NCBI GenBank assembly: GCA_964291405.2
Contig: OZ219926.1
Coordinates: 4,128,001 to 4,192,000 of the forward strand
DNA from: Thermodesulfobacteriota bacterium
GTDB taxonomy: Bacteria; Desulfobacterota; Binatia; Bin18
DNA length: 64,000 nt
Direction of reading: 5' to 3'
In this document: positions 6,032 through 28,240 of the stretch, piece by piece
Layout of the letters: every line of letters begins with the position of its first letter
How positions within the stretch are numbered: the first letter of the stretch is position 1
Made by a program: the position numbers and the translations under genes
The notes under the pieces: generated by a model
What the model saw: the letters and a program-made list of their open reading frames with translations, nothing else
What the model was told of the DNA's origin: nothing
The model's database searches: none

Positions 6032-6061
6032 GGGTGACATCGCAGGACCGATTTTTCACAG

Positions 6062-7321: not shown

Positions 7322-7419
7322 ACCCCTTTCTGAATCGCCAATAGGGGCAGGGTTGCCTTGCGCGACATGGGGAAAGCGGGTAGGGAGCGAACAGATCGCT
7401 GTGCGGAAAGGGAACGGGT

Positions 7420-7668: not shown

Positions 7669-7696
7669 GGGCGACCGGCAAGTCACTCCCTATGGA

Positions 7697-8722: not shown

Positions 8723-8955
8723 CGTTGCTCCTTCTCTGAGTTCTGCTAGCCAGTAAAGGTCAAAATAAGAAAGAAGAGCAGCAAGGGGGCGAGCATCCAG
8801 ATCAGAAAAACCACCCAGGCCGGTCCTTGTCCCTGATTTTCCATGTCATCTCCTCCAGCTGAAACGGTTTGATTTCAGGTTCCTACCATACGGAAAACCT
8901 CGCGCTGACTCAATGCGGTCGGTCGTGACGCAAGAGGGCGGTTCACGCATCGCCT

Positions 8956-9636: not shown

Positions 9637-9815
9637 GAAAAACAGCGCGGCGCATTCCAGGAGAATGTAAGCCTTATTATACCGAGATCAAGTCCGGTGG
9701 AAGAGACCGAGGGCGAGACCACACTCCTCAACATCGTAACGGGGCATTATTCTTTCCTTCTCGGGCCGTTCTGCGTATATTGAAACCTGACTTCAGCAAT
9801 GCTGGAGGATGTAGA

Positions 9816-11024: not shown

Positions 11025-11050
11025 AGGTAGGAGACATGGACGATCAGTTT

Positions 11051-12043: not shown

Positions 12044-12119
12044 ATCCGCCCTCCCTTACTTTTATTGGCACGGGATTATGGCGGGTCCGGCTCGATATTG
12101 TCAACGAAGGCGCTGATGT

Positions 12120-12716
12120 CTAGGGGTGCTCCGGGAATCGGACCCGATACACCCGCGACAGATGGATGAAATACCCCTCTCCCTGTTTCAACGCGGCCAG
12201 ATTTTCGGCCGCGACCTTTCTGCCGACGGTCTGACTGATCGCCTCAGCCTCAGTTCCTTCTCTGCGCAAGAGCAGCGTTGTTTCGTACCGCCCAAAAACG
12301 AGGCGGGATGGGTGTGGAAGGAATTCGACTACCACCATTCCGGTGCGTAAGAAGAAAGTCAGTGTGTGCTCCCAGTCGGCCGTCTCTTGGGCACCATCAA
12401 CGATGAGAAGGGGGGGCAGGGAAGGCGTCCTACCCAGACCGGTCTGCAGCGTCTGAAGCACCTGCTGAGCGATATCGTCCGAAATCGTCCCCTCTGTCGG
12501 TAGGGGAATATAGGCAGCGTCTTCACGCAGCAGGAGACGAAAGGGCATTTCGAGTTGCTGACGACCGTGGGCGTCCAGACACACCACCACGCCGTGTTGA
12601 CTCGCTTGACGCAGGGCGAGGCTCAGGCATAACTCGGTCCGGTCGCGCGGCTGCCCCCCCAGCACGGCTAGACGGCCGCTGAGGTCGGGCAGCGGAAAGA
12701 GACGCTCCTGGGCCAT
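12120..12716 (-). CDS. Hypothetical protein, degenerate P-loop NTPase-like
   Basis: Likely start MAQERLF at 12716; LLIVDGAQ Walker-B-like, L..LKQGEG tail, no intact Walker A. Confidence 0.5.
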   Translation of the reverse strand: MAQERLFPLPDLSGRLAVLGGQPRDRTELCLSLALRQASQHGVVVCLDAHGRQQLEMPFRLLLREDAAYIPLPTEGTISDDIAQQVLQTLQTGLGRTPSLPPLLIVDGAQETADWEHTLTFFLRTGMVVVEFLPHPSRLVFGRYETTLLLRREGTEAEAISQTVGRKVAAENLAALKQGEGYFIHLSRVYRVRFPEHP

Positions 12717-12819
12717 GGAGCGAAGAGCATAGCGTCTCTCCCGCTGCGGGGAAAGCTGACCAACTCCCGGTCGCGCGCTATCTCCTCCCCTACTCAGGCC
12801 GTGCCGAACCGCGTATAAG

Positions 12820-13281
12820 GTGGGCATGGCAATGGCGCGCTCGTACAAAGGCGTTTTCCTGGTGATAGGACTCCTGACCATAGGTGTGGTGGCGGTGACG
12901 ATTACCTATCGCCATCGCCCCCTACCCAAAGAGACAGTGCAGAGTGTCCTGCAAGCCCGCGGGATGCCTGCGGCAAAACGGGGAATGCGACTTTCCCAAG
13001 CCGGTCGCCAGCTTTTACCACCCGACGAGCGGGCCGAAATGGACGCGATCTATGCCGAGGCCCTCCGGTCGTTACCCGAGCAGGAGCGACTGAAACTGGA
13101 GGAGCTGAGAAAGCATGGCGCCCAGCCCAGCGGACGGGAGGTGACGGAGATGGGCCGGTTGGTCCAAAAGGCGCTTCGGGCGTTGCCACCGGAAAAAAAT
13201 CAACGCCTGTTTGCTTTGGTCGAAAAGGCGGTTGCCCTCCAGCTTGCCAAACAACAACAAGCCGCTCCCCAGCCGAAGTAA
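12820..13281 (+). CDS. Hypothetical membrane-anchored helical protein
   Basis: N-terminal TM segment, helical repeats, co-oriented with the next two genes. Confidence 0.6.
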   Translation: MGMAMARSYKGVFLVIGLLTIGVVAVTITYRHRPLPKETVQSVLQARGMPAAKRGMRLSQAGRQLLPPDERAEMDAIYAEALRSLPEQERLKLEELRKHGAQPSGREVTEMGRLVQKALRALPPEKNQRLFALVEKAVALQLAKQQQAAPQPK

Positions 13282-13285
13282 TGGT

Positions 13286-13774
13286 ATGCCGTTCTCAGCC
13301 CACCGTGCCGCCGTCCGCATACTGTGTCTGCTCGTCTGTCTGGTCTGGCCCACCCCGGTTGCCGGCATCCGATCCGACGCTACGACGCTGTTCGGGATCG
13401 AGGGTTTTCGGGTGGCTATTGTGACCATTAGCCCTCCGGCGCGCAGACTGGGATTTTCGGAAACGCAGCTCAACATGCTGGCTGCCACTCACCTACGCCG
13501 TAACGCGCTGACGGTCGGGGACTTTCCAGCCGTGCTGAATATCTCTCTCCGGGTCGTGGAACACCCGGCCTCGGTGTTGGCCTATTCGCTCGAACTGCAA
13601 GTACAACAAGTCGTCCATTTGAAACGAACGGAGCAGGTCCACTTAATGGCCCCAACCTGGACGGAAGGGACGCTGACCATGGTGCCGCGAGCAGGGCTGA
13701 GGCGCAGCGTTGAAAGTGCCCTGGCCGAACTCTTTGACTCGTTGGGTCGCGATTATCGCCTGGTCAACTCATGA
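13286..13774 (+). CDS. Hypothetical exported protein
   Basis: Signal-like N-terminus from ATG 13286; stop overlaps next ATG (ATGA). Confidence 0.6.
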   Translation: MPFSAHRAAVRILCLLVCLVWPTPVAGIRSDATTLFGIEGFRVAIVTISPPARRLGFSETQLNMLAATHLRRNALTVGDFPAVLNISLRVVEHPASVLAYSLELQVQQVVHLKRTEQVHLMAPTWTEGTLTMVPRAGLRRSVESALAELFDSLGRDYRLVNS

Positions 13775-14496
13775 AGCCTCTCGTCAACCCAAAAGATGGT
13801 AGTCTGCTCGTCCGCATCCCCGCGGGCGAATATTGCATGGGAAGCGAGAGCGGGACGCCGCCCGAACGTCCGGCCCACCGGGTCTCGCTGGGGAGTTTTT
13901 ATATTGCCCAACACCCGGTGACGAATGCCCAGTACCGGCAGTTTGTCATCGACACTGGCCATCGTGCACCCTATCTCGATGATGCCCGGGTGGAACGTGA
14001 GAATTGGGACCAGGAGCGCCACGCTCCGCCGGCGGGGCGAGAAGCCCATCCGGTGGTCTTGGTCAGCTGGCATGATGCCCAGGCCTACTGCGCCTGGGCC
14101 GAGGGCCGGCTGCCAACCGAGGCCGAATGGGAAAGCGCGGCCCGTGGCGGGTTAGAAGACAAGCCCTATCCGTGGGGAGATGGGATCAGTCGGGAGTTGG
14201 CAAATTATGATAATCGGGCCGGGACCACCCCGGTCGGGAGCTATCCGTCCAATCCCTATGGTCTGTATGACATGGCCGGTAACGTCTGGGAGTGGGTGGC
14301 CGACTGGTACGACCCGCAGTACTATACAGTCTCCCCGACCGAGGACCCGCAGGGCTCGGCGACCGGAACGGTTAAGGTGTTGCGCGGAGGAGCCTGGCTG
14401 CTCTTCCCCGAGTTTTGCCGGGTTGCCTACCGCTTCCGCAACAACCCCAATTTTCGCTTCAATCTGATTGGCTTTCGTCTGGCGAAATCGGCCTGA
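13771..14496 (+). CDS. FGE-sulfatase (SUMF1/EgtB/PvdO) domain protein
   Basis: F/YxMG, VTNAQY, PVV.VSW.DA.AYC.W, RLPTEAEWE.AARG, NPYGLYDMAGNVWEW, RGG, GFR. Confidence 0.93.
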   Translation: MKPLVNPKDGSLLVRIPAGEYCMGSESGTPPERPAHRVSLGSFYIAQHPVTNAQYRQFVIDTGHRAPYLDDARVERENWDQERHAPPAGREAHPVVLVSWHDAQAYCAWAEGRLPTEAEWESAARGGLEDKPYPWGDGISRELANYDNRAGTTPVGSYPSNPYGLYDMAGNVWEWVADWYDPQYYTVSPTEDPQGSATGTVKVLRGGAWLLFPEFCRVAYRFRNNPNFRFNLIGFRLAKSA

Positions 14497-15952
14497 GCAG
14501 ACCCTCTTGATACAACTGGGCCAGGACCTGACGGACCTGGGCAGGCGGGCTCTGCCGCCCGTCGGGATGCCGCTGATAGGCGGCCAGGATATCCACAACG
14601 GCACGCTGCGTCTGCACGCAGCGCAGCAGGGTCGGGACATTGACTCCGGACAGAAAGCGCAGGCCGCGTGGGTAACGTGGAGTCACAACCGCGGGCCGGA
14701 GCTCAACATACGAGCCTTCGATAACAGGCCGCTCCTGGATACGCAGGTCAGGCGTTACCATTACGTGTGAAACCGGCTGGGAATCAAATGGAGAAAAGGC
14801 CGTGGACGGCTGCTGCGGAGCGGCGGGACCCGCGTCGGGCTCAAGGCGCAGGCAACGGTGCTGCCAAAAGGGACGGTCCGGCCAGCGACCCTCTTCCGCG
14901 TAATAGCGGGCCGATTGTTGATAGTGGCTGCGATAGGTGTCTCGCTGACCGGCTTCGTACAGCTCGGCAGCCTGGGACTGCATGACGGGCCGCTGGAGTA
15001 TGGTGTTGACAACCACGGCGCCGGTAATGGCGGATGCCATGGCTTTCCGGACTCCCTCCGAGGACAAGGGATCAATGAACAGGCCGGCGTCACCGACGAG
15101 GAGGGTGCGGCCGGCGACAAACTGCCGCGCGGTATACAGGCTGGCATCAAAAACCTGAGGTGGGTGGGGAAGGTGCGCGTCAGCCAGAAAACCCGAGACA
15201 TAGGCCGCCTTGCGGAGCTCCTCGATATAAAAGCGCTGTAGTCCGACCCGCTTTATGGCGTGGCTGTGTCGCCAGTCAAGCAGCAGCGTGACATTCCGCT
15301 CGCCCGTGTGCAGCGGGACTGACCAGACCATGCCGTCCGCATAGGCTTCAAGCAGGGTGTTGGCGAAGTCTACGCCGGGTGGATTCCCCGCGTTTTGCCA
15401 ATAGCCCGTCAGGGCCAGGGTCTGGAAGACACTGTCCCGCTGGCGCAGGTTGTGGCGGGCGTATATGCCCGCGTGGCCGGTCGCATCAACACAGAATTCC
15501 GCCCGAATGCGCTCTCTCGAACCATAGCGGACGGTCACGCCGTGTTCCCCGTCAGGCCGGACGTCTCGCACCGGTTGTCCTTCCACAACCCGGACACCGG
15601 CCTGGCGAGCCTGATTGAGCAGAATCAGGTCAAAGTCGGCGCGCACAGACTGAAACCCGCGCCGGTGGTGATCCGAGCTGTAATACGCGGTACGCGGTCG
15701 AGGCGAGCCCCAACACACGCTGTGGCCAGACATCCGCAGAAAGCCGGCCTGTTCCACCTGCGTCCGGACACCCAGAAAGTCGAGCAGGGGGAGGATACTC
15801 GGGGTCAGGGACTCTCCAATCTGGTGCCGTGGAAAACGGCGCTTCTCAATAAGCACGACCCGATAGCCGAAGCCCGCGAGTTGGTGGGCGATAGTCGCTC
15901 CGGCCGGACCGCCGCCAGCAACTACGATGTCTGCTGCGGAAGGGAGTGTCAC
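14459..15952 (-). CDS. qhpG: FAD-dependent monooxygenase, QhpG-like (Trp hydroxylation for CTQ)
   Basis: GGGPAG, FPR..IGESL, DATG, GDA..F.DPLSS.G halogenase-like fold; adjacent to qhp genes. Confidence 0.8.
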   Translation of the reverse strand: MTLPSAADIVVAGGGPAGATIAHQLAGFGYRVVLIEKRRFPRHQIGESLTPSILPLLDFLGVRTQVEQAGFLRMSGHSVCWGSPRPRTAYYSSDHHRRGFQSVRADFDLILLNQARQAGVRVVEGQPVRDVRPDGEHGVTVRYGSRERIRAEFCVDATGHAGIYARHNLRQRDSVFQTLALTGYWQNAGNPPGVDFANTLLEAYADGMVWSVPLHTGERNVTLLLDWRHSHAIKRVGLQRFYIEELRKAAYVSGFLADAHLPHPPQVFDASLYTARQFVAGRTLLVGDAGLFIDPLSSEGVRKAMASAITGAVVVNTILQRPVMQSQAAELYEAGQRDTYRSHYQQSARYYAEEGRWPDRPFWQHRCLRLEPDAGPAAPQQPSTAFSPFDSQPVSHVMVTPDLRIQERPVIEGSYVELRPAVVTPRYPRGLRFLSGVNVPTLLRCVQTQRAVVDILAAYQRHPDGRQSPPAQVRQVLAQLYQEGLLRPISPDESQSD

Positions 15953-16099: not shown

Positions 16100-17839
16100 A
16101 TGCATATTGCCTCGGTACTCTCCCGTTTCTATCGGCTGTCGCCCTTTGTGAAGCCGTATGTGCGCAGAATCGGTTTCATCTTCCTCCTGTCCTCCTTTGG
16201 CACCGTTCTCGGTCTGCTCTGGCCGTTGTTTACCAAAATCCTGATTGACGATGTTTTGCTCGCACGCAACATATCGCTCTTGGTGACGCTGTGCGGGATC
16301 ATGCTGGGTGTCACGCTGCTCGGTTATGGGGTAGGGGCGATCAATCGCTATCTCTACACCCAGGTTACGGCACGCGTTTTATTTGCGCTCAGACAGCACC
16401 TCTTCGCCCATTTGCAGAAGCTCTCTCTCCGCTTCCATACCCAGGTCAAAGTGGGCGATCTCCTGTCGCGCCTGAATACCGATATTGCCGAGATTCAGTC
16501 CGTCCTCACCGACGCGGCCTTCACCTTTGTCACCAATATCTTCGTCCTGCTGGCAACCGTGGGATTTCTCATCTGGCTCAACTGGCGGCTCTTTCTGGTC
16601 AGCCTGCTCGTTATCCCGCTCCAAATATATGGGGTACGCAAAATACAGCCGTATATGGTCGAGGAAACCCGCAAGGTGCGCGAGTTGAACGCCTCGATTT
16701 CCGCCTTTCTGGTTGAGTCCCTGTCGGCCATCAAATTCGTCAAGCAGTTTGGTGCGGAGCCTACCCAATTGGGGCGTTTGGGCCGACTGGGTCAACGCTT
16801 TGTTGCGCTGGTGACACGGTTTGAAATGATCGGCTATATCGGCAGCACGACCGCGACGGCTACGACGTTTCTGGGCAGTACCCTGGTCACCCTCTACGGG
16901 GGCTATCTGGTGATTGAGGGCCAGATGAGTATTGGCAGTCTGGTTGCCTTCGCCGCCTACCAGTCGCGCGCCTTCAGTCCTATCCAGGTTCTAATGGACC
17001 TGTACCTACGCATCGAGCGGGCTGGCGTGTCCGTGGACCGGGTGTTCGAGTTTCTGGATATCGGACAGGAATATACCGAGCCGTCCGGCGGGACCTTACG
17101 CCCCGAAGGGCTACACGGGGAGATCGAATTTCGTGACGTATCGTTCGGCTATCAGACCAACGCTCCGGCCAGTCAGCCGGTGTTGCGTCAGGTGAGTTTT
17201 CTGGTGGGGGCCGGGCAGCGCCTGACCGTTCTGGGACCGAGCGGAACGGGCAAGTCCACGCTCGTCGACCTCCTGATACGGCTGTATGAGCCCCAGGCCG
17301 GGACCATCTGCCTGGACGGTCATGACGTGAGGGAGTTGGACCTGGTATGGCTACGTCAACATGTGGTCGTCATCGGCCACGAGCCCTTTCTATTTCACGC
17401 CTCGATTCTGGAAAACGTGTCGTACGCCAGCCCGGAGGCAAGCCGCGAAGAGATCGTTGCGGCGGTCACAGCAGTTGGCCTGCACGAGTATGTGACCACG
17501 TTGCCTGACGGTTACGAGACCACTGTGGGCGAACGGGGCACGCGCCTGTCGGCCGGACAGCGTCAGCGCATTGCCCTGGCCCGCGCCCTGCTCAAAAAGC
17601 CCCGGATTCTGGTGCTGGACGAAGCCCTGTCCGGCCTTGATGTCGAAAGCGAAGCCGACCTCCGTCAGACCTTGTCTGCGGTGATGCGAGGCTGCACGAC
17701 ACTCGTGGTGACCCATCGGTTGAGCTCTCTCCACGCCGACGATGCGGTTGTCGTGCTTAAGCACGGCGCGGTCGAGTGGCAGGGAACTTACCGGGAACTG
17801 ATCCGAGCGCCTGACATCTTACAGGCCGCCACCGGGTAG
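16100..17839 (+). CDS. qhpF: ABC exporter (TMD+NBD), QhpF-like
   Basis: TM domain, GPSGTGKST, LSAGQRQR, LDEA; likely start ATG 16100; qhp context. Confidence 0.82.
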   Translation: MHIASVLSRFYRLSPFVKPYVRRIGFIFLLSSFGTVLGLLWPLFTKILIDDVLLARNISLLVTLCGIMLGVTLLGYGVGAINRYLYTQVTARVLFALRQHLFAHLQKLSLRFHTQVKVGDLLSRLNTDIAEIQSVLTDAAFTFVTNIFVLLATVGFLIWLNWRLFLVSLLVIPLQIYGVRKIQPYMVEETRKVRELNASISAFLVESLSAIKFVKQFGAEPTQLGRLGRLGQRFVALVTRFEMIGYIGSTTATATTFLGSTLVTLYGGYLVIEGQMSIGSLVAFAAYQSRAFSPIQVLMDLYLRIERAGVSVDRVFEFLDIGQEYTEPSGGTLRPEGLHGEIEFRDVSFGYQTNAPASQPVLRQVSFLVGAGQRLTVLGPSGTGKSTLVDLLIRLYEPQAGTICLDGHDVRELDLVWLRQHVVVIGHEPFLFHASILENVSYASPEASREEIVAAVTAVGLHEYVTTLPDGYETTVGERGTRLSAGQRQRIALARALLKKPRILVLDEALSGLDVESEADLRQTLSAVMRGCTTLVVTHRLSSLHADDAVVVLKHGAVEWQGTYRELIRAPDILQAATG

Positions 17840-17861: not shown

Positions 17862-18575
17862 TCACGTGTGACTCGTCTGTTGGAGATAGGTCCGGGCGGT
17901 TTCTGGCGTCAAGTCTGGGTGGCGCTCGGCCCGGAGGGCGAGCGTAGCGGCAATATGCGCTGAGGCAAAACTATGGCCGTAAAAGTTCTGCGTCTGGGCC
18001 GGGCCGGGCAGGGGGCGTGGATAGGGATGGGCACGAAAGGGAACCGGGCTGTCTGTGAGGGCGCGGTATTCGTCCCACGCGCAGCTTTCATCTGCGGCCA
18101 CGCCTATGACGCCGGGTAAGGTTGCGGGTAACACATCCGAGCGGTCCGGGGGAGAAGACGCAATCAGGATGAGCTTTGCTTCTTGTGCTTGGGCGACCAG
18201 GGCCGAGAGCGGCTGGCGATGCTGCGCGTTAATCATTCCCAGACTCAGACTGATGATTTTCATGCGCTGTCCAATGGCCCAGCCCAAGGCCGCTTCCAGA
18301 ACCGGAAATGAAGTGGCCAGATGGTCCGTAAAAATCTTAACCGCGTAGAGCTCGGCTTGGGGAGCTTTGGCACGGACCACCCCGGCGAGGGCGGTCCCGT
18401 GCCCGATGTGATCGGGGTACTCCGGGCTGGTCTGGACCTCGTTCTCCTCGTTCAAGAAAAAATGGATGCCGCCCGCGACGCTGCCAACATGCGAATGCTG
18501 GGCATTCACCCCGCTGTCGATAAGCGCGACTTTAACCCCCGCCCCGGTCGGCGCCCCGTCCCTGTCCTGACCCAT
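17862..18575 (-). CDS. qhpE: Subtilisin-like leader peptidase QhpE
   Basis: Small S8 protease with IDSG, HGT, GHSFAS triad; divergent from qhpA. Confidence 0.88.
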   Translation of the reverse strand: MGQDRDGAPTGAGVKVALIDSGVNAQHSHVGSVAGGIHFFLNEENEVQTSPEYPDHIGHGTALAGVVRAKAPQAELYAVKIFTDHLATSFPVLEAALGWAIGQRMKIISLSLGMINAQHRQPLSALVAQAQEAKLILIASSPPDRSDVLPATLPGVIGVAADESCAWDEYRALTDSPVPFRAHPYPRPLPGPAQTQNFYGHSFASAHIAATLALRAERHPDLTPETARTYLQQTSHT

Positions 18576-18660
18576 GCCTTGTCCCTTGTAAGCAAAGCAT
18601 ACCAAATATGCCCGTTTATGCGAGGGAGAAAATGGTATCTACAACTCCGGTTCTTTCCAT

Positions 18661-18744: not shown

Positions 18745-20424
18745 ATGACGACCGGAAAAACATGGAAACGTATGAGAAGGCACATCTGGGTATTGCTCGT
18801 GTTGGCGGGGCTCGTTGGCACGACCCATGATGTCAAGGCTGCGGAACACCAGGCGACGCCTTCCGCCCGAGAAACGTTGGTGATCCGCTGTATACGTTGC
18901 CACGCGCCGCAAGGAGAGAATGGCAAGCTTGACGCGATTGAAGCCCAGCGCAAGTCACCCGAAGGCTGGAGCATGACGCTCAGCCGTATGGTCCGAACGC
19001 ACGGGGTCGAATTGCAGGACGGAGATGCCCGCATTCTGGTCAAATATCTGAGCGATCACTACGGGCTGGCTCCCAAAGAAGTCGAGCCCTATCGCTTTAT
19101 TCTCGAACAGCGCAATACCCGCACCACGCAGGACGTGCCCAAGCCCCTCCAGGCTGGCTGTATCCAGTGCCATACCTACGCACGGATCGCCTTGCAGCGC
19201 CGGACGCAGGACTCGTGGGAGCGGCTGCCGGACGCCAAGGTCGCACTCATGGCGAATATCGGCAGTGAGACCGCCTCCGCCGGCCAGTTGAAGGATTATT
19301 GGTTTGATGATGCAAAGAAAGCTGCGGTGCCCCATCTGATCGAGCACCAGCCGTTTGAGACCGAAGCCTGGACGGCCTGGCAGGCGGCCAAAAAGCCGAG
19401 CTATGCCGGTACTTGGCTGGTGGTTGGCCATGACCCCGGCCGCGGCGGGGATTACACCGGGCAACTCACGCTGACCGCCGGGGAGGACGATCAATACACT
19501 GGCACATTTTCCTACACGTTTGCCGACGGCTCTCGGATGGAAGGCTCCACGACCGGGACGATATACACCGGCTTCCAGTGGCGCGGCGTTGCCCAAGCCA
19601 AGGAAAGTGGACCGGCCGGCCGGGAGATGCGACAGCGCGAGATTTTCTTTGCCTCCGAAGACGGGAACACCGTTTCCGGCCGGCGCTTGCTGACCAACCT
19701 CGGCGACCTGGGCATGAATGAAACCTGGTATCGCCGCCGGGGCGGGGCGCAGCTGCTGACGGTCAGTCCAGCCATGATCCAAACCGGCTCTCCCCAGACA
19801 GTAAATATTTTCGGGATGGGCTTCTCCGGGGACACGCTGTCGGCGGATAAAATTTCTTTTGGCGAGGGCGTGGGGGTGTTGTCCCTGCGGCTCGATGGCA
19901 ACCAGACGATTGTGGCGGAAGTCTTTGCCAAGGCTGGCGTGGCAGAAGGGCTGCGCACGGTCTCCATTCAAGGGGTGGCGGGAACGGGGCAGGTCGCGGT
20001 CTACGAGGCGGTCGATTACATCCGCATCACGCCGGAACGGGGCTTCGCCCGGCCCGGCGGCATTCGGACGCCAAAAATTTTTCAGCAGTACGAAGTGGTA
20101 GGCTATGCGAACGGCCCGGATAACGCCAAGGGCACGGACGACGATGTCAAGCTGGGACGGATCGGCCCGGTCAAGTGGAATCTGGAAGAGTACGTGAAAC
20201 GTCCGAACGACGACGATATTCAGTATGTCGGTGCGGTCGACCAAACCGGCCTGTTTCACCCCAACGAGGATGGGCCGAATCCCAAACGCCACCTGATGGA
20301 AGGTAATGTGGGCGATGTCTGGGTGGAAGCCTGGTATACGCCCGAGGGCGAAAAACGACCCATGGGCGCGCGCGCCCACTTATTAGTGATGCCGGCCAAG
20401 TTTGTCTTCCCACCGATTGAATAG
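18745..20424 (+). CDS. qhpA: QHNDH alpha subunit (diheme c), copy 1
   Basis: CIRCH and CIQCH, RK.PEGW.MT..RM...HG, ARIALQRRT, NGPD...GT.DD, GPNP.R, C-terminal PPIE. Confidence 0.95.
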   Translation: MTTGKTWKRMRRHIWVLLVLAGLVGTTHDVKAAEHQATPSARETLVIRCIRCHAPQGENGKLDAIEAQRKSPEGWSMTLSRMVRTHGVELQDGDARILVKYLSDHYGLAPKEVEPYRFILEQRNTRTTQDVPKPLQAGCIQCHTYARIALQRRTQDSWERLPDAKVALMANIGSETASAGQLKDYWFDDAKKAAVPHLIEHQPFETEAWTAWQAAKKPSYAGTWLVVGHDPGRGGDYTGQLTLTAGEDDQYTGTFSYTFADGSRMEGSTTGTIYTGFQWRGVAQAKESGPAGREMRQREIFFASEDGNTVSGRRLLTNLGDLGMNETWYRRRGGAQLLTVSPAMIQTGSPQTVNIFGMGFSGDTLSADKISFGEGVGVLSLRLDGNQTIVAEVFAKAGVAEGLRTVSIQGVAGTGQVAVYEAVDYIRITPERGFARPGGIRTPKIFQQYEVVGYANGPDNAKGTDDDVKLGRIGPVKWNLEEYVKRPNDDDIQYVGAVDQTGLFHPNEDGPNPKRHLMEGNVGDVWVEAWYTPEGEKRPMGARAHLLVMPAKFVFPPIE

Positions 20425-20462: not shown

Positions 20463-21926
20463 ATGGAATTACACTTCCGTGCGGAAAACGCCCACGCTAT
20501 AACGGAGGGCAACCAGAACATTCTGGTTGCGGCCAAAAGCATGTCCATGTTTGTCATGGACCCGGTCTCCCAGGCCGTCCTCGATTATGTGCAGGCGCAT
20601 CCGCACGCGATCCAGGAAGAGCTGACCGCCAGTCTGGCCGAGCACTTCCCGCTGGCCGAAATAACCGAGACGATCCAGGAATTTATCACCTTAGAAATCC
20701 TGCAAACCCAGGAGCGTTCCGCTACTCCCGCTCCCCTGCCGGTGCTCGACGTCGAGCATTTCCCGGTGAGTTCGCTCGTTGTCAACGTGGCCAATAAGTG
20801 TAACCTCCACTGCACCTACTGCTACGAACCCGAGGGGGCGAAATACGGCCCGTCGCCGGTCCAGATGGACTGGGAGACCGCGCGCGACAGCGTCGATTTT
20901 CTGTTCAAGAAGTCCGGCGCCAGCAAAGAGGTCAATTTGATTTTCTTTGGCGGAGAGGCGCTGCTGAACTTCAAGCTCATGCGTCGGACCGTCGCCTATG
21001 CGGAAGAAAAGGCCCAGGCCGAAGACAAGGTCGTCGACTTTTCGCTCACGACCAACGGAACGCTCTTAACCGACGAGGTAATCGACTTTTTCCAGGCCCA
21101 TCGCTTTGGCGTGACCATCAGCATTGATGGTCCCAAAGACCTGCACGACAAGCGGCGCGTTTTTCTTACAAAGCGGGGCGAACAGAAAGGCTCGTACGAT
21201 CTCTTACGGCCCCGCCTGGAACGCCTGCTGGAACGCTATACGGTCAGGCCGGTGGTCGCCCGGGTCACGGTCACAAAAGACGCCATCGATATCGTGCGCA
21301 CCTACGAGCATCTCACGCAGCTCGGTTTTTTTGAGGTTGGCTTTTCGCCGGTCACCGCCCAGGCCGAGACCGACTATGGCTTGGAGCCGGCCGATTTGCG
21401 TGAATTGCTGCGGCAGTTTCGCGAGCTTGGCGCGGTGTATATCGAGCGGGCGCTCAACCAGCAGTACACCGGGTTTTCAAATTTGAGCACCATGCTGACC
21501 GACATTCACCTGGGCACAAACAAGCTCTTTCCGTGCGGGGCCGGCCTGGGCCTGTTGGACGTGGACGGCAACGGTGATGTGTATTTATGTCATCGGTTTC
21601 CGGGCACCGAGGAACAAAAATACGGCAATGTCAAAGACGGCATTCAGTACGACCGGCTGAACGCCTTTATCAACGGTGCCCATCTGGGCAATAAGCCGGT
21701 ATGTCAGACCTGTTGGATTCGGGGCCTGTGCGGCGGCGGGTGCTACCACGAAGCCATGACCGAGTTTGGGGACACGGCACTGCCGAATCTGCACTACTGC
21801 GATTTCTTGCGGGAATGGACGGAATACGGCATTGGCGTGTATATGCAGTTGCAAGAACAAACCCCTGGGTTTGTCGAGCAGTATGTGTTACGCGGGCGTG
21901 GAGACGCCCCAAAAGAATTAACCTAA
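20463..21926 (+). CDS. qhpD: Radical SAM/SPASM thioether-forming maturase
   Basis: N-terminal RRE-like region, CNLHCTYC, PCGAG...LCHRF, C..C.....CGGGCYHEA; between qhpA and qhpC. Confidence 0.95.
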   Translation: MELHFRAENAHAITEGNQNILVAAKSMSMFVMDPVSQAVLDYVQAHPHAIQEELTASLAEHFPLAEITETIQEFITLEILQTQERSATPAPLPVLDVEHFPVSSLVVNVANKCNLHCTYCYEPEGAKYGPSPVQMDWETARDSVDFLFKKSGASKEVNLIFFGGEALLNFKLMRRTVAYAEEKAQAEDKVVDFSLTTNGTLLTDEVIDFFQAHRFGVTISIDGPKDLHDKRRVFLTKRGEQKGSYDLLRPRLERLLERYTVRPVVARVTVTKDAIDIVRTYEHLTQLGFFEVGFSPVTAQAETDYGLEPADLRELLRQFRELGAVYIERALNQQYTGFSNLSTMLTDIHLGTNKLFPCGAGLGLLDVDGNGDVYLCHRFPGTEEQKYGNVKDGIQYDRLNAFINGAHLGNKPVCQTCWIRGLCGGGCYHEAMTEFGDTALPNLHYCDFLREWTEYGIGVYMQLQEQTPGFVEQYVLRGRGDAPKELT

Positions 21927-21939: not shown

Positions 21940-22281
21940 ATGAAACACCTCAAGGCAGCGAACTCCAAGGCCCGGGCCGTCACCGCCAGTGTGGCACAAG
22001 CGACTTCCACCGAGGAAGACGTTATCGGGATGGCCCAACCCATCGGTTGTACGACGATCTTCAATCCGGGCTGGGAGGCGAATCCGTGGGGTGGAGCCAG
22101 CAGCATGTGCGCCCCCATGGAGGCCGACCTGCTGAGCTGTGCGAATCTGTGCTGGTGGCCGGCTCAGGTGCCGGACAGCCTCCAGAGTGCTCCCGAGTGG
22201 GCGAAAGGCTGCTCGGGCATGAATCAGGAAGACTGGCGCAACCTCGACGTTGTTTTCCCCAAGACCGATACGTCCGGATAA
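21940..22281 (+). CDS. qhpC: QHNDH gamma subunit precursor, copy 1
   Basis: MKHLK..N.KA leader; core GCTT.F.PGWE...C.PMEADL..C...CWWPAQVPD. Confidence 0.95.
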   Translation: MKHLKAANSKARAVTASVAQATSTEEDVIGMAQPIGCTTIFNPGWEANPWGGASSMCAPMEADLLSCANLCWWPAQVPDSLQSAPEWAKGCSGMNQEDWRNLDVVFPKTDTSG

Positions 22282-22306
22282 ACGCAGCGGGCGGAAGGAG
22301 CCGGTG

Positions 22307-23398
22307 GTGCACGGGAAAAACAGGCCGCTGCTGGGGGGTGTGCTCTTTGTGTTCGGACTGCTGGTCCTGCCGCAGACGACCTGGGCCAAGTGGTACCTCC
22401 TGGCCAGCACGCATCCCAACAACCTGGTCGTCGTCGATACCGAAACCGACACGGTGGTCAAAGACATTGCCCTTGAGGGTCGTGGGCCGGCGCTCTATAT
22501 CGCGCCAAACCCGGCCCAGCCGCAGTTCGCCTATGTCGTAAATAATCTGGCCAAAAGCGTTGCCATGGTCGATCTGGACGAGGGCAAGCAGGTCAAAAGC
22601 TTTGACTTGTCGAGCGACAACGAGCTCGTACGCACCATGGCGATCGATGTGAACATGCAGGGCACCCGGCTGTTCGTGCACGAAATGCCGGTTCAGCAAG
22701 ACATGGGCCGCTATACGGCCCGGGACAACCGGATACGGGTCATTGACCTGGAGACCAATGAGACGCTGACCACGTTTACCGCTCCCCGCCAGGTGATGGG
22801 ATTAGCCTCTTCAAAAGACGGCAAACGCCTCTATCTGTTCAGCGTCGGTCAGGACATTTTTGTGCACAGCACGGAAGACGGCAGCCTACTCGATGTCATT
22901 CCGCTGGCAAACCGCAACATCAGCGGCATTGCGAGAACCGACGGCCTGCCGCTCGGCGGGACCTATCAGGAAAGCGGCCACCTCGTCTCTTTCGGGACCT
23001 TCACCACCGATTCCATCACCAATCAGGTGACGCTCGGTATCGGCTCTCTCGACCTGACTCAGGAAGACCCGGAACTGAAGGTCGTTGAATTGCAGCCTTT
23101 TGTCGAAGGCGATTATGTGCTCACGGGTGCGCTGTCGCCGCATACGAACAAGGCCTATTTCGCATACAACAGTTTGTGGAAGGTTGACCCGAAAACCCGT
23201 CACATTGAGAAAAAGGTGTCGCTGTCCAACACCTATTTTGCGCCGCTCGTTCACCCCGAAGGCAAGAAGGTCTACTGCGGCAGCAACTGGCACGATGTCG
23301 CGGTCTACGACGCGGAATCACTCGACCTGATCACCAAAGTCCCCCTGGGCCATTCGCAGACCGGAGGGGTCAGTGTCTTGCGGTTTGTGAATCGTTAG
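22307..23398 (+). CDS. qhpB: QHNDH beta subunit (beta-propeller), copy 1
   Basis: Signal peptide, HPNNL.VVD, PRQV propeller repeats, follows qhpC; GTG start after AGGAG. Confidence 0.88.
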   Translation: MHGKNRPLLGGVLFVFGLLVLPQTTWAKWYLLASTHPNNLVVVDTETDTVVKDIALEGRGPALYIAPNPAQPQFAYVVNNLAKSVAMVDLDEGKQVKSFDLSSDNELVRTMAIDVNMQGTRLFVHEMPVQQDMGRYTARDNRIRVIDLETNETLTTFTAPRQVMGLASSKDGKRLYLFSVGQDIFVHSTEDGSLLDVIPLANRNISGIARTDGLPLGGTYQESGHLVSFGTFTTDSITNQVTLGIGSLDLTQEDPELKVVELQPFVEGDYVLTGALSPHTNKAYFAYNSLWKVDPKTRHIEKKVSLSNTYFAPLVHPEGKKVYCGSNWHDVAVYDAESLDLITKVPLGHSQTGGVSVLRFVNR

Positions 23399-23406: not shown

Positions 23407-24039
23407 ATGTCTCGGACGATACTTACCCGCCGAAATGTTCTCCAGGGGATCGGCACCGCCGCCCTTCTCGGCCAGGCGTACAGTCTGGCGCATGCCGTTG
23501 AAAAAGGCGACGCCGCCAGCTTCGCCTCGGTTGTGAAACGCCGGCGCATGATCCGTAAGTACGAGGACAGGCCGGTCCCTGAAGAAGAGATCCGAGCGCT
23601 GCTGCGCTACGCCGTGCGTGCGCCCAGCGCGGGGAATCTACAGCCGTGGGAGTTTATTCTGGTGCGTGACACCGAGGTCCGAGACCAACTCGCCAAGGCG
23701 GCGATGAATCAGAACTCGGTTGCCACCGCGCCGATTATTGTTGCCACCTGTGCCGATATCCAACGCATGGGTGAGAAATACGGCACGCGCGGCGCTTTTT
23801 ATAGTTTAGTGGATACCGCGTTTGCCTCATTACTCATTTTGTTAGGCGCAACCGAGCGCGGGCTCGGGGCCTGCTTTGTTGGCGCGTACAATCCGGAAGA
23901 AGTCGCCAAGATATTGCAACTGCCCAGCCACGTCCGTCCGGTCGGACTCATCACCCTCGGTTATCCTGCGGAAAAGCCACGCAAACCGACGAACAAGAAA
24001 ATCCCGCTCGAGAACCTGATCCACGAGAATACGTGGTAG
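23407..24039 (+). CDS. Nitroreductase family flavoprotein with Tat signal
   Basis: TRRNVL..AHA signal; RR.IRKY, APSAGNLQPWEF, GLGACFVG, LGYPAE. Confidence 0.9.
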   Translation: MSRTILTRRNVLQGIGTAALLGQAYSLAHAVEKGDAASFASVVKRRRMIRKYEDRPVPEEEIRALLRYAVRAPSAGNLQPWEFILVRDTEVRDQLAKAAMNQNSVATAPIIVATCADIQRMGEKYGTRGAFYSLVDTAFASLLILLGATERGLGACFVGAYNPEEVAKILQLPSHVRPVGLITLGYPAEKPRKPTNKKIPLENLIHENTW

Positions 24040-24175: not shown

Positions 24176-25840
24176 ATGGAGGGCATGATCATGAACGCTA
24201 TATGGGGGAGACGTGGTCGACTAAGCGGATACCTCTTGAGCCTCTTCTTGGGCTTCACGCTCTGTTTTGCAGGACAACCCGCGTGGAGCCAGGAGATGAC
24301 CGGGCCGGCTTTGCTGGAGACGCGTTGCTCGGGTTGTCATCCTCCTCATGAAGAAGGGGGCAAGCTTGACGCGATCGAACATCAGCGCAAGCCCCCCGAA
24401 GCCTGGGAGATGACTATCTATCGCATGTTGCGCACCCACGGAGCGAATCTGGAAGCGGGTGAGGCTCGCATCCTGATCAAATACCTGAGCGATCAGTATG
24501 GCCTGGCACCGGCGGAAGTCAAACCCTTTCGGTATGCCTTAGAGAAACGGAACAATACGATAGAAAAACATGTTCCCAAGGAAGTGAAGGGCACCTGTGT
24601 GGCCTGTCACTCCTATGCGCGGATCGCCCTGCAGCGCCGTACGCCCGAATCGTGGGGGCGTCTGCCGGACCTGACCGCGGCCTTGCTGCCGAATATCGAA
24701 AACCAGGTCGCCTCAACGGGGCTGCTGGGCGACTTCTGGTACACGCTGGTGCGGAAGGATACCGTCCCCTATCTGGCGCAGACCTATCCGTTTGACTCAG
24801 CCTCTTGGAGGCAGTGGCAGGCCAAGCCCAAACCGGACTACGCCGGGGTCTGGAATGTGGTCGGTCACGACCCTGGAAAGGGCGGGGCCTACACCGGCCG
24901 GATGACGCTGACCGCGTCGGGGAACGATAACTACGAGGGCCAGCTCGCGTATGACTTTGCCGATGGGTCGCGTATGACCGGGAAAAACACTGTGACGATG
25001 TATACCGGCTTCCAGTGGCGGGGTGTGGCCGAGGTCGAGGGCGGCAAGACCCACAAAGAAATCTTTTTTGCCAATGAGGACGGAACGGTCGTAAGCGGGA
25101 GGCGGTTGCTGACGCTTGTTGGCGATCTGGGCATGGAAGAGACCTTATACCGGAATACGGGCCAGGCAAAATTTTTGGCCGTCAGCCCGGCCGCGCTCAA
25201 AGTCGGCGAGCGCTCCACGCTCAGGCTGTTTGGCATGAACCTCCCCGAGTCCCTGACCGCGGCTTCGATCTCTCTGGGAACGGGTGTGACGGTTCAGTCT
25301 CTGCGGAGGGTTGATGCTGATACGGTCATGGCCGACGTGGTAGTGGGGAAAAAGGCAAAAGTAGGCGCTCGACAGGCTCGGATTCGGGGAGTTGATGGGG
25401 AACAGTCGCTGGCCGTCTACGATACGGTTGACTATATCCGTCTCTCTCCGGAACAGGCGTTTTCTCGGCCTGGTGGCATTCGCACCCCCAAAATTTTTCA
25501 GCAGTTTGAGGCGGTCGGATATACAAATGGTCCGGACGGACGAAAGGGAACTGACGACGATATGAAGCTGGGACGTGTCGGTCCGGTGACGTGGAAGCTG
25601 AACGAGTACGTGCGGCGCGTCAATGATGACGATGTGCGCTTTGTCGGTGCCATGGATGCCCACGGTCTTTTTACGCCGGCCGAGGACGGTCCAAATCCAA
25701 AACGGCACTTGCAGCAGGGCAATGTCGGCGATGTCTGGGTGGAGGCCTGGTATCGGCCAAATGGCGCCCGTCGGCCTATGGGAGCGCGCGCCCACCTGCT
25801 GGTCATGCCGGCAAAGTATAATTTTCAACCGATTGAATAG
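24176..25840 (+). CDS. qhpA: QHNDH alpha subunit (diheme c), copy 2 (start may be 24185/24191)
   Basis: CSGCH and CVACH; colinear paralog of copy 1. Confidence 0.95.
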   Translation: MEGMIMNAIWGRRGRLSGYLLSLFLGFTLCFAGQPAWSQEMTGPALLETRCSGCHPPHEEGGKLDAIEHQRKPPEAWEMTIYRMLRTHGANLEAGEARILIKYLSDQYGLAPAEVKPFRYALEKRNNTIEKHVPKEVKGTCVACHSYARIALQRRTPESWGRLPDLTAALLPNIENQVASTGLLGDFWYTLVRKDTVPYLAQTYPFDSASWRQWQAKPKPDYAGVWNVVGHDPGKGGAYTGRMTLTASGNDNYEGQLAYDFADGSRMTGKNTVTMYTGFQWRGVAEVEGGKTHKEIFFANEDGTVVSGRRLLTLVGDLGMEETLYRNTGQAKFLAVSPAALKVGERSTLRLFGMNLPESLTAASISLGTGVTVQSLRRVDADTVMADVVVGKKAKVGARQARIRGVDGEQSLAVYDTVDYIRLSPEQAFSRPGGIRTPKIFQQFEAVGYTNGPDGRKGTDDDMKLGRVGPVTWKLNEYVRRVNDDDVRFVGAMDAHGLFTPAEDGPNPKRHLQQGNVGDVWVEAWYRPNGARRPMGARAHLLVMPAKYNFQPIE

Positions 25841-25930
25841 GGATTGAACAAACCCTGGCGTTAGAGCGAGCAGTATGCTACGAGGCTGGGAGGAGACGCG
25901 AGAGTTTCCGGTCAGCGCAAGGAGGGCGTG

Positions 25931-26263
25931 ATGAAACACCTCAAGGCCGCGAACCATAAAGCGCATAGAGTCGAGACCGCCCCCGCGGCCAAACGGCAGG
26001 TGCCGGAAGACGTTCTGGGCATGGCCCAGCCGATGGGCTGCACCACGATTTTTAACCCCGGCTGGGAGGCGAACCCCTGGGGCGGCACCGCGGGCATGTG
26101 CGCGCCAATGGAGGCTGACCTGCTCGGCTGTGCCAATGTGTGTTGGTGGCCGGCTCAGGTGCCCGACAGCCTGCAAAACTACCCGGAGTGGGCCAGTGCC
26201 TGTTCGGGTGTCAACGCCGAGGACTGGCGTAGCTTGGAGCTGGTCTTCCCCGAGAAGAAATAG
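25931..26263 (+). CDS. qhpC: QHNDH gamma subunit precursor, copy 2
   Basis: MKHLKAANHKA leader; GCTTIFNPGWE...CAPMEADLLGCANVCWWPAQVPD. Confidence 0.95.
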   Translation: MKHLKAANHKAHRVETAPAAKRQVPEDVLGMAQPMGCTTIFNPGWEANPWGGTAGMCAPMEADLLGCANVCWWPAQVPDSLQNYPEWASACSGVNAEDWRSLELVFPEKK

Positions 26264-26315
26264 CCGCAGAGTACCGTCTCAAAATCCGTGCGGTGAATAA
26301 CGAGGGGTTTCCAGT

Positions 26316-27140
26316 ATGAACCCTGGGCAAAGACAGCGTCTGTGGAGCCGAGGCGTTTTCTTTGCGGGACTGTTCCTGCTCCTGCACGGGTTCCCTCCGC
26401 TCGTTGAGGCGGACTGGTATATCGCCTCGACAACCATCCCACCGAACTCCTCCGCTTCTGCTTGGCGTCCTCCTCAGGTTGTGACGCGTGTTGCCCGGAA
26501 CCGACTGACCTACGAGACCCGAGCCTGGACGCAAATTATCGACCTCAACACGCAGCAGCTCTCGATTATCAGCCATCTGGGACAGGTGTACTGGCAGGGA
26601 CCAATCGAGGCCTACGCCACGGTTATGGCAGCGCGCACCCAGGAACGGCGGGCGCAGGCGGAACGCTTGATGAACCAGCTCCCTCATGGGCCACAACAAT
26701 TCGTGACAAGACGAGCCGGTCCGTTTGATAGCCTGAGCCCCAGGCTGACGATTACGATCACCCCGATGTCGGAGACCGAGTCGGTCGCCGGGTATACGGC
26801 TCACAAATATCGTATCCAGCGGAACGGCATCGCGTATGAAGAAACCTGGTTGGCTGAGAAGATCAAGCTGGGGACGGATGTTGATATGTCCCGGCTGAAC
26901 GCGTTTATCGACAAGCTGCAAACTTCTCGAACGACGCCGCCAGGAGCTGTGCTCGCCGAATTAACCGAGCTGATCAATATAGGCTACCCAGTCAGGACCG
27001 TGAACCTGGTCACCCAGGTGGTCAAGGAAGTGGTCCAGGCCGAGCAGCGGCCGATTCGGGCTGAGGTATTTATGGTGCCGGATGGCTATACCAAAAAGGC
27101 GCTGGTCGAGATCATGTTTCCAACAAGGAGGCGTTTATGA
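26316..27140 (+). CDS. Exported DUF4412-like protein
   Basis: Signal peptide; IIDL....L.I..H, ETE.VAGY...KY, E.W.A, GYP, F.VP.GY.K pattern. Confidence 0.65.
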   Translation: MNPGQRQRLWSRGVFFAGLFLLLHGFPPLVEADWYIASTTIPPNSSASAWRPPQVVTRVARNRLTYETRAWTQIIDLNTQQLSIISHLGQVYWQGPIEAYATVMAARTQERRAQAERLMNQLPHGPQQFVTRRAGPFDSLSPRLTITITPMSETESVAGYTAHKYRIQRNGIAYEETWLAEKIKLGTDVDMSRLNAFIDKLQTSRTTPPGAVLAELTELINIGYPVRTVNLVTQVVKEVVQAEQRPIRAEVFMVPDGYTKKALVEIMFPTRRRL

Positions 27141-28240
27141 AGGGCAAGAGTCTGTTATGGGCAGTGTCAACGCTGAGTGCGCTGGTCCTCGTTTGTAGTC
27201 TACCCGGCCTGGTGTGGGCCAAATGGTATATCCTGACCGGCGCCCATCCGAACTCCGTGTATGTGATTGATGCGGAAACCGATACGGTCGTGAAGACCAT
27301 CCCGCTTGAGGGAAAAGGGCCCATCTTTACCGTGGCGCCGAATCCAGCCCGACCCCAGTTCGCCTATGCGGTCACCAACCTCAGCCAAAGCGTGGCCCTG
27401 GTTGACCTGGACGAGGGAAAAGAGGTCCTGCGCTTTAATCTCTCCAACGACAACGAACTGGTCAGGACCATGGCCATTGATGTCAACCCGCAGGGCAATC
27501 GCCTCTACATCCATGAAATGCCGTTGAAGAAAGACCTGGGCAAATACGAGATACTGGAGACCCGCATCCGAGTCATCGATCTGGACACCAATACGGTCGC
27601 CAATGTGTTCCCCGCCCCCCGTCAGGTGATGGCGCTGGCGTCGTCCCAAGACGGGAAAAAGCTGTACGCCTTTAGCGTGGGCAGAGATATCTCGGTGCTG
27701 AATCCAGAGACGGGTCAGGTCGAGGACGTTATCCCCATGGCGGACTGGAACGTGACCGGCGCCGGCAAGCTGGAGGGACTGCCCTTGTGGAACCCCTATC
27801 AGGAAAACGACTACCTGGCCTCGTTTGCCGTGTATATGACGGACACGATTACCCAGCATGCCACCGTTGGAGTAGCCACCCTTGACCTCAAGCAGGCCAA
27901 TCCGGAGCTGCAAGTGGTTGAGCTTCAGCCCTATGAGGCCGAATGGTGGACGGCCCACGGGGCGGTATCGGCCAAAACCCAGAAGGCCTATCTCGGCTGG
28001 GACAAGCTGTGGAAGATGGATATCGCGACGCGCCAGATGGAAGAAGTGAGGCAGTTCGACACCAACAGTGTCTTCGGCTCTTTTCTCCATCCCGATGGGA
28101 CCAAAGTCTACTGCGGTGGAAACTGGAGTGCGTTGTCCGTGTTTGACGCCGACACGCTCAAGCCTCTCAAGAAGATTGATCTGGGGCACTCCCAAGCCGG
28201 TGCGGGTATCCGGTTTGTCAACCGCGAGAATGGGTTCTAA
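27137..28240 (+). CDS. qhpB: QHNDH beta subunit, copy 2
   Basis: Clear paralog of 22307-23398 (WAKWY.L..HPN, SNDNELVRTMAIDVN, LGHSQ). Confidence 0.88.
   Translation: MKGKSLLWAVSTLSALVLVCSLPGLVWAKWYILTGAHPNSVYVIDAETDTVVKTIPLEGKGPIFTVAPNPARPQFAYAVTNLSQSVALVDLDEGKEVLRFNLSNDNELVRTMAIDVNPQGNRLYIHEMPLKKDLGKYEILETRIRVIDLDTNTVANVFPAPRQVMALASSQDGKKLYAFSVGRDISVLNPETGQVEDVIPMADWNVTGAGKLEGLPLWNPYQENDYLASFAVYMTDTITQHATVGVATLDLKQANPELQVVELQPYEAEWWTAHGAVSAKTQKAYLGWDKLWKMDIATRQMEEVRQFDTNSVFGSFLHPDGTKVYCGGNWSALSVFDADTLKPLKKIDLGHSQAGAGIRFVNRENGF

Follow-up and report, generated by a model that had tools for sequence, protein, structure and literature searches.

Lysine in place of the conserved distal histidine of heme 2 in the alpha subunit of a quinohemoprotein amine dehydrogenase from Candidatus Binatia

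Which residue, if any, completes the coordination of a c-type heme whose conserved distal histidine is missing? This question is raised by the gene qhpA1, which encodes the alpha subunit of a quinohemoprotein amine dehydrogenase (QHNDH) in a 64,000-nt stretch of contig OZ219926.1 (assembly GCA_964291405.2). The whole stretch is called the window here and all positions given are window positions; its closest genomic relatives, at 99% identity, are metagenome-assembled genomes (MAGs) of Candidatus Binatia. QhpA1 possesses two CxxCH motifs in its N-terminal domain as well as the RM methionine of heme 1 and lacks the family's distal histidine of heme 2, which is a conserved trait of QhpA proteins standing outside the formal definition of the family. 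A lysine is found in its place. The replacement of histidine by lysine is solid and clade-wide as a fact of sequence, and what is said below about coordination chemistry is a proposal.

The heme-2 site of QhpA1

The protein comprises a signal-peptide-like N-terminus, a di-heme domain and then three beta-barrel domains, as read from the translation and from Pfam. The elements of its gene that the argument needs are these:

18745..20424, plus strand: qhpA1 (P0001), QHNDH alpha subunit with lysine at the site (Lys-type), 559 aa, ATG start at 18745
18889..18903, plus strand: attachment motif of heme 1, CIRCH (Cys49-His53), from the translation
18988..18990, plus strand: codon of Met82 in the RM motif, presumed distal ligand of heme 1, from conservation
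19159..19173, plus strand: attachment motif of heme 2, CIQCH (Cys139-His143), from the translation
19237..19239, plus strand: codon AAG of Lys165, at the column of the conserved distal histidine of heme 2, from the ungapped alignment
19249..19251, plus strand: codon of Met169, candidate alternative or switch ligand, one helical turn past Lys165
19255..19257, plus strand: codon of Asn171, in a column invariant in Lys- and Thr-types and rare in His-types (types named after the residue at the site)

The Pfam families PF09098, PF14930, PF09099 and PF09100 were all found above cut-off and in this order both in QhpA1 and in QhpA2, the product of a second alpha-subunit gene in the window. With the NCBIfam model TIGR03908 (curated equivalog cut-off 274.35 bits) QhpA1 reached 419.8 and QhpA2 450.1 bits. 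An AlphaFold2 model of QhpA1, built from an alignment of 114 sequences (alignment A1), has a mean predicted local distance difference test score (pLDDT) of 92.3 and a predicted template modelling score of 0.89 and places residue 165 within a helix that extends from 155 to 168. A Foldseek search with this model retrieved 1jmx_A (template modelling score, TM, 0.93; E 1.2e-46) and 1jju_A (TM 0.91) and no other close match. The same two alpha chains, 1JJU_A (E 1.4e-68) and 1JMX_A (E 8.4e-68), were also the sole matches of QhpA1 in a phmmer search against all PDB chains.

The segment 19159-19260 is translated as CIQCH-TYARIALQRRTQDSWERLPDA-K-VALMANI, where Lys165 is located 22 residues after the heme-2 histidine His143, Pro162 three residues ahead of the lysine and Met169 four residues past it. 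The preliminary description of this stretch had read the motif, the lysine codon, the proline and the methionine in just this way, and its reading agrees exactly with the translation; its statement that the methionine ligand of heme 1 is kept is borne out by Met82. In alignment A1 the attachment residues of heme 1 (C49, C52, H53) and M82 are nearly invariant, R81 is invariant, and the same is true for C139, C142 and H143 of heme 2.

The register was read from the solved chains. Residues 42-558 of QhpA1 were aligned by phmmer with residues 4-488 of 1JJU_A and there is no gap from the second CxxCH motif to the site, so that His104 of 1JJU_A corresponds to His143 and His126, which we take to be the distal ligand of a bis-histidine heme 2, to Lys165. 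The ungapped stretch is anchored by R147, Q151-R152-R153 and W158, and the alignment with 1JMX_A gives the identical register. Thus the Paracoccus denitrificans reference, which the preliminary description had quoted, was correctly registered, and the comparison with the PDB alpha chains that it had named as a possible source of refutation reveals no misregistration. The other histidine nearby, His121 of 1JJU_A, aligns with Arg160 of QhpA1.

Conservation was evaluated on the best 150 of 716 family matches among 50%-identity representatives, to which P0001, P0002 (QhpA2) and P0031 were added. Among the 105 rows covering the site, the distal column of heme 2 holds H in 96, K in 5, L in 2, T in 1 and A in 1, and the Met column of heme 1 is Met in 91 of the 94 rows with the first CxxCH motif. 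Judged from these alignments the distal column behaves as an axial-ligand position and is conserved about as well as the heme-1 methionine. Column 160 shows His in only 3 of 107 rows and, therefore, His121 of 1JJU_A was rejected as the true ligand.

A further line of evidence comes from the di-heme domain itself, which is an internal repeat: BLASTP aligned Cys49...Trp75 with Cys139...Trp158 (E 0.010 as a single comparison, with one 7-residue gap). Ungapped extension of this alignment places Met82 and Lys165 each seven residues past the repeat tryptophans W75 and W158, and for this reason position 165 is considered the structural counterpart of the heme-1 ligand Met82. In terms of sequence, bis-His ligation by the canonical residues is impossible for heme 2 of QhpA1, and its mode of binding or of use must be another one than in the QHNDH enzymes studied so far.

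Distribution and descent of lysine, threonine and histidine at the site

The extent of the replacement was followed in a set of full-length homologs, namely P0001, P0002 and those matches of two protein searches whose length was 470-640 aa. In its 182 rows the site column contains K in 105, T in 14, L in 3 and H in 59, with one row lacking the motif; lysine thus accounts for 105 of the 122 full-length rows without histidine at the site. A second count was based on 54 genome loci and the window, where 63 QhpA genes have a readable site (six pieces of open reading frames without the motif were excluded): 39 encode Lys, 16 Thr and 8 His. The lysine is specified by AAG in 27 and by AAA in 12 of these 39 genes, threonine by ACC (14) and ACA (2), and histidine by CAC (7) and CAT (1). 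Use of both lysine codons at an otherwise invariant residue means that the lysine has been maintained at the protein level while the codon drifted, and by this measure Lys165 is under purifying selection. The exchange of His for Lys is, on the alignments, a clade-wide trait of the Binatia-type QhpA and goes beyond this one gene.

Each of the 16 Thr-type genes is accompanied by a Lys-type gene, 13 of them in the same locus (window counted) and 3 in the same MAG, where the paired loci are L028 with L004, L031 with L007 and L029 with L038. In many Lys-type clusters the 10-kb flank contains no second set. Beside the Lys- and Thr-types a group of His-retaining QhpA exists in Binataceae.

Some observations on individual members may be added. 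Isolated sequences outside the Lys/Thr group also have no distal histidine, namely P0124 and P0132 with Leu and P0247 with Ala in a garbled-looking stretch; these may be independent losses or sequence errors. Eight loci (L009, L021-L023, L027, L030, L037 and L041) contain Binatia-type qhp clusters with QhpA 55-85% identical to that of the window and are labelled 'uncultured Enterobacteriaceae' or 'Klebsiella pneumoniae', labels which look mistaken or like placeholders.

For the phylogeny two sets were used. In the FastTree set of 114 rows the Lys- and His-types were thinned below 80% identity, which reduced the Lys-type to 38 sequences and removed none of the 59 His-types. Here the sequences without His form one clade nested in the His-type family (54 rows, with K 38, T 14 and L 2; support 99). 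For IQ-TREE, 16 chosen His-type rows were taken together with eight locus sequences (His-retaining, from Binataceae and 'delta proteobacterium' MAGs), and in the quick search these eight His-retaining genes fall inside the Binatia-type clade (61 rows, support 99). Both programs leave the Lys, Thr and Binataceae-His groups in an unresolved polytomy, and a single clean origin read directly off the free trees was rejected for this reason. By approximately unbiased (AU) tests neither a joint clade of Lys and Thr nor a monophyletic Thr group is rejected (p-AU 0.662), and the short free search ended 12.2 log-likelihood units below the constrained tree. The alignment data thus fit, without proving it, a scenario in which His was lost once at the root of the Lys/Thr group before the Lys and Thr paralogs separated. 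By codon arithmetic a single base change would separate Asn (AAC) from each of His (CAC), Lys (AAR) and Thr (ACC).

The surroundings of the site changed as well. The Binataceae His-types have the same 3-residue insertion after the ligand helix and the same loss of Arg at column 182 as QhpA1; being common to them, both changes are older than the loss of His. Columns 128 and 171 of QhpA1 co-vary with the ligand column. Glu at column 128 (19126-19128) is a feature of 39 of the 59 His-types and of all 14 Thr-types and is mostly lost in the Lys-type, and Asn171 is present in 105/105 Lys-type and 14/14 Thr-type rows, in a fraction of 0.03 of the 59 His-type rows, with Phe in the Binataceae His-types. 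Position 166 is Ala in 14 of 14 Thr-types versus L, V or A in the Lys-type.

Coordination of heme 2

The explanation that we favour, with a rough probability of 0.45, is that Lys165 binds the iron of heme 2 as sixth ligand in a low-spin His/Lys heme while the heme of the Thr paralog is open. According to this proposal, which is built on the alignments and the model, Lys165 would have taken over the role of the distal axial ligand and heme 2 of QhpA1 would be six-coordinate. In the solved QHNDH enzymes electrons travel from the cysteine tryptophylquinone (CTQ) to heme 2 and on to heme 1. A His/Lys heme 2 would still serve as relay, from the CTQ of the gamma subunit via heme 2 to heme 1 (His/Met) and an external acceptor, at a potential that is probably somewhat shifted. 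In QhpA2, with Thr at the column, heme 2 would most likely be five-coordinate or water-bound, and an open heme 2 is the most likely state of this paralog whatever the state of QhpA1.

Several features speak for coordination by lysine. As judged from alignment and model, Lys165 is situated on the heme-facing side of the helix that bears the family's distal His. In the 105 Lys-type rows a stripe with i, i+3/4 spacing (W158-L161-K165-L168-169) is conserved and hydrophobic save for the lysine: W158 is found in 105/105, position 161 is L in 48, M in 36, V in 11 and I in 7, and L168 occurs in 103/105. An amine aimed at the iron from such a stripe would be expected to coordinate rather than to remain charged. 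Furthermore, of the residues able to ligate (H, M, C, K or Y), only Lys165 combines conservation in the Lys-type with absence from the Thr-type. In the alignment no substitute ligand specific for the Thr-type was found, save for a Tyr at position 202 which is also present in 29 of 59 His-types. Natural c-type hemes with a distal Lys are, to our knowledge, rare. A precedent is offered by heme 2 of TsdA from Allochromatium vinosum, an electron-transfer c-heme for which PMC6879331 gives an Em of -129 mV in the His/Lys form.

A number of points weigh against this explanation. The role of His126 in 1JJU_A as distal ligand is presumed. A lysine must be deprotonated in order to ligate iron. The confidence of the model falls past the site, with a mean pLDDT of 88 for residues 161-170, 74 for 171-180 and 77 for 181-190. 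To arrive at Lys (AAR) from His (CAY) two base changes are necessary, passing through Asn or Gln, which ligate weakly or not at all. The arrival of Asn171, in Lys- and Thr-types alike, coincides with the loss of His, and the new pocket may be set by a feature other than the lysine. Finally, the same column tolerates the non-ligating residues Thr and Leu (14 and 3 of the 182 full-length rows), and the Thr lineage has been stably kept (16 genes in loci and window). Since such residues persist at this site, a sixth protein ligand from it appears to be dispensable in the clade.

The strongest competing explanation is one in which heme 2 is five-coordinate or bound by water or hydroxide across the whole Lys/Thr clade and Lys165 is a residue of the distal pocket and not a ligand. 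The lysine might then act as base, cation or hydrogen-bond partner, and heme 2 might bind small molecules or act catalytically. This would fit with Thr and Leu being maintained although they are unable to ligate, with the smaller neighbours of the Thr-type (Ala166 in all 14), with the invariance of Asn171 in both types and with a route from His to Lys through a non-ligating intermediate. A catalytic function of the alpha-subunit hemes in the last oxidation to CTQ has been suggested by Oozeki et al. (PMC7876137). Against an open heme stands the energetically awkward position of a charged lysine facing the iron from a hydrophobic helix face. Comparable lysines bind the iron in variants of cytochrome c. 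Moreover, the lysine is invariant in the 105 Lys-type proteins and these have no acidic partner specific to them, Glu128 being mostly lost. On balance we regard an open heme in QhpA1 as possible, if rather unlikely.

Another explanation involves Met169, either as the ligand of a His/Met heme 2 in the subclade of QhpA1 or as the partner of Lys165 in a redox-dependent switch as in A. vinosum TsdA. In the AlphaFold2 model Met169 lies one helical turn past Lys165 on the same face, and it is present in all close orthologs of QhpA1, 27 of the 39 Lys-type genes in loci and window; within the Lys-type it is limited to the QhpA1 subclade and one neighbouring subclade. The potentials stated for heme 2 of TsdA in PMC6879331 are -129 mV (His/Lys) versus +266 mV (His/Met). 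However, position 169 is Met in just 32 of the 105 Lys-type proteins, Phe being commonest (58; L in 13 and I in 2), and a methionine ligand leaves the invariance of the lysine unexplained. In addition, the helix or the heme would probably have to move, a residue at i+4 being about 6 Å further along. Met169 was thus rejected as a general sixth ligand, which makes the His/Met option, listed in the preliminary description as one of the coordinations of this heme, unlikely for the Lys-type at large; restricted to the QhpA1 subclade, ligation by or switching to Met169 is improbable.

A ligand might also be recruited from elsewhere, for instance Asn171, a clade-specific residue of the alpha subunit (e.g., Tyr106, Tyr145 or Met549) or a residue of a partner subunit, with Lys165 being incidental. 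Y106, Y145, Y220, M549, K462 and K537 are conserved in the His-lacking clade and rare in His-types, and N171 is invariant in Lys- and Thr-types. On the other hand, Y145 is also Tyr in 14 of 59 His-type rows, and a candidate in a partner, the fifth cysteine of the gamma subunit, occurs in His-retaining Binataceae loci as well and hence independently of the loss of His. We consider a ligand from elsewhere a shade more doubtful still than one provided by Met169. A covalent use of Lys165, cross-linked to the porphyrin of a modified catalytic heme 2 as in cytochrome P460, is very improbable, the argument for it being the analogy with the P460 and cytochrome c'-beta family, where the presence or absence of one lysine decides heme cross-linking, and the dichotomy of Lys versus Thr/Leu at one site beside the iron, whereas neither sequence nor fold is related to P460 and the real Foldseek matches of the model are QHNDH alpha chains only.

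A bolder idea may be mentioned, although we would give it little credence. Binatia might possess a pair of QHNDH isozymes in which the relay heme adjacent to the quinone was re-engineered twice, to a His/Lys or Lys-modified heme on the one hand and, in the Thr paralog, to an open, five-coordinate heme, the binding site of a small molecule (O2, H2O2, NO or nitrite), on the other, with at least one isozyme coupling amine oxidation to heme-2 chemistry or finishing its own CTQ.

With histidine, lysine and threonine at one axial position within one protein family, nature has provided an experiment. More than 100 Lys-type sequence clusters exist and Lys- and Thr-type copies often occur side by side in a locus. 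The series is attractive for bioinorganic work, and with it the influence of the sixth ligand on the flow of electrons from a protein-derived quinone could be studied cleanly. The redox behaviour of Lys-ligated hemes is of current interest, the His/Lys and His/Met forms in TsdA being about 400 mV apart (PMC6879331). The series also bears on the biogenesis of QHNDH, namely on whether the alpha-subunit hemes perform the final oxidation of CTQ, as suggested in PMC7876137. In addition, a defined biochemical trait is added to the Binatia, an uncultured phylum. Literature searches on heme ligands of QHNDH/QhpA and on Binatota/Binatia with this enzyme, with most subscription journals outside their coverage, gave no description of the variant, and no paper linking Binatota with QHNDH was found in them.

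The surrounding locus and comparison with known systems

The gene qhpA1 is embedded in a locus with the order qhpG (minus strand), ABC exporter, qhpE (minus strand), qhpA1, qhpD, qhpC1, qhpB1, a gene of the nitroreductase family and then a second set of subunit genes:

14459..15952, minus strand: qhpG, flavin monooxygenase for CTQ biogenesis (NF049967, 287.3 bits, cut-off 240)
16100..17839, plus strand: qhpF-like ABC exporter (Pfam ABC_membrane and ABC_tran, position as in related loci); start approximate, the open frame extending back to 15395
17862..18605, minus strand: qhpE, subtilisin-like leader peptidase (NF049966, 168.5 bits, cut-off 165)
20463..21926, plus strand: qhpD, radical SAM/SPASM maturase of the gamma subunit (TIGR03906, 548.7 bits, cut-off 453)
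21940..22281, plus strand: qhpC1, gamma subunit (CTQ-bearing) of set 1 (NF037958, 129.7 bits, cut-off 50)
22250..23398, plus strand: qhpB1, beta subunit (beta-propeller) of set 1 (TIGR03907 QH_beta, 173.1 bits, below the cut-off of 223.2); start codon uncertain
24176..25840, plus strand: qhpA2 (P0002), second alpha subunit, Thr-type (TIGR03908, 450.1 bits)
25928..26263, plus strand: qhpC2, gamma subunit of set 2 (NF037958, 135.5 bits, cut-off 50)
26316..27140, plus strand: gene of a DUF4412-like secreted protein in set 2
27137..28240, plus strand: qhpB2, beta subunit of set 2 (TIGR03907, 181.2 bits, below the cut-off of 223.2)

TIGR03907 is the best NCBIfam match of both beta subunits, which are 54% identical to each other. 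QhpA2 matches 1JMX_A with E 3e-80 (phmmer), and its Thr167 (codon 24674-24676) is found in the same column as Lys165. In both gamma subunits, QhpC1 and QhpC2, alignment with 1JJU_C shows the four cysteines, the WW pair and the acidic partners of the cross-links to be preserved. Because both CxxCH motifs, the gamma cross-link residues and all maturation genes are intact, this QHNDH is not a decaying one. Judged from sequence and model, a Candidatus Binatia bacterium possesses here a genuine and fully equipped QHNDH, of predicted activity, with QhpA1 as its heme-bearing alpha subunit.

The second set (24176-28240, comprising qhpA2, qhpC2, the DUF4412-like gene and qhpB2) is without maturation genes of its own. 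Its arrangement is conserved in 12 related loci (L001-L003, L005, L006, L012, L013, L015-L018 and L020). In L019 (L019:17176-18357) the second set looks degraded, with a qhpA2 frame of about 730 bases and a qhpC2 that diverges after the WW region as if frameshifted.

QhpC1 and QhpC2 also possess a fifth Cys in the context WAK-G/A-C-S-G, which is missing in the solved gamma chains 1JJU_C and 1JMX_G. Among the gamma subunits that could be read in the loci and the window, those of all His-retaining Binataceae loci included, only the frameshifted second copy of L019 is without it. This cysteine may represent a further cross-link or a contact to a metal or heme. As the ligand of a His/Cys heme in place of the lost His it is disfavoured, since the His-retaining Binataceae loci have it too.

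Directly after qhpB1 follows a gene (23407-24039, plus strand) for a flavin mononucleotide (FMN) protein of the nitroreductase family with a twin-arginine (Tat) export signal (TRRxxLQG). It occupies the same place in 35 Lys-type loci and is missing from the flanks of the His-retaining Binataceae loci; 26 of the 35 orthologs were included in an alignment (A2), three being left out for doubtful starts and the others as near-duplicates. The link between this QHNDH variant and a periplasmic protein of nitroreductase fold is unusual, and the protein might be a redox partner. A complex prediction of mature QhpA1 (with two hemes and FMN) and this protein gave a score of 0.00 in both runs, the mark being 0.32; a score below the mark speaks neither for nor against the pairing. 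A cytochrome c or cupredoxin able to accept electrons from QHNDH was not seen within the window.

The remaining parts of the window (1-14500 and 28283-64000) are rich in genes of oxidative catabolism, among them those for five luciferase-like monooxygenases, two EthD proteins and beta-oxidation-type enzymes. A three-subunit molybdenum hydroxylase is encoded at 44126-47892 (minus strand), an FGE-sulfatase-like gene adjoins qhpG, and a DNA methylase and a GIY-YIG gene are located at the window end.

The nearest known systems are the QHNDH enzymes of Paracoccus denitrificans (1JJU/1PBY) and Pseudomonas putida (1JMX/1JMZ). Their QhpA (chain A) has the same four domains, two CxxCH motifs and the heme-1 Met, and the enzymes have the same fold (TM 0.91-0.93) and the same partner and maturation genes (qhpD, C, B, E, F and G). 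QhpA1 is 29-32% identical to the solved alpha chains and differs from them in the exchange of His126 (1JJU_A) for Lys165, or for Thr167 in QhpA2, in the 3-residue insertion past the ligand helix and in the loss of an arginine that 45 of the 59 His-types have at column 182. The gene order differs as well, with G, F and E upstream and the gene of the Tat-exported nitroreductase-family protein downstream.

More closely related are the His-retaining QhpA of Binataceae (L046, L047 and L049-L054), which show about 49% identity and belong to the same Binatia-type clade. They share with QhpA1 the insertion after the ligand helix, and their gamma subunits the fifth Cys, but have His at +22 (context PDLHEYF) and no Asn171, and their loci exhibit the canonical order A-D-C-B-E-F-G without a nitroreductase gene.

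Among unrelated enzymes, with a different reaction, TsdA of A. vinosum is comparable. Its heme 2 is likewise an electron-transfer c-heme of a di-heme periplasmic enzyme, with His/Lys ligation in which a near Met can replace the Lys (PMC6879331). Ligation by lysine has been demonstrated there, whereas for QhpA1 it is proposed from sequence and model. The geometry also differs. Lysine and methionine adjoin each other within a loop of TsdA but are spaced as i and i+4 along a helix of QhpA1. A lysine amine is also known as axial ligand of c-hemes in NrfA (CxxCK), in octaheme tetrathionate reductase and in alkaline cytochrome c. In NrfA and octaheme tetrathionate reductase the lysine ligates the catalytic heme, and that of NrfA replaces the proximal His of the attachment motif. 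In contrast with these two enzymes, QhpA1 has a normal CxxCH motif and its lysine is found at the distal position of an electron-relay heme.

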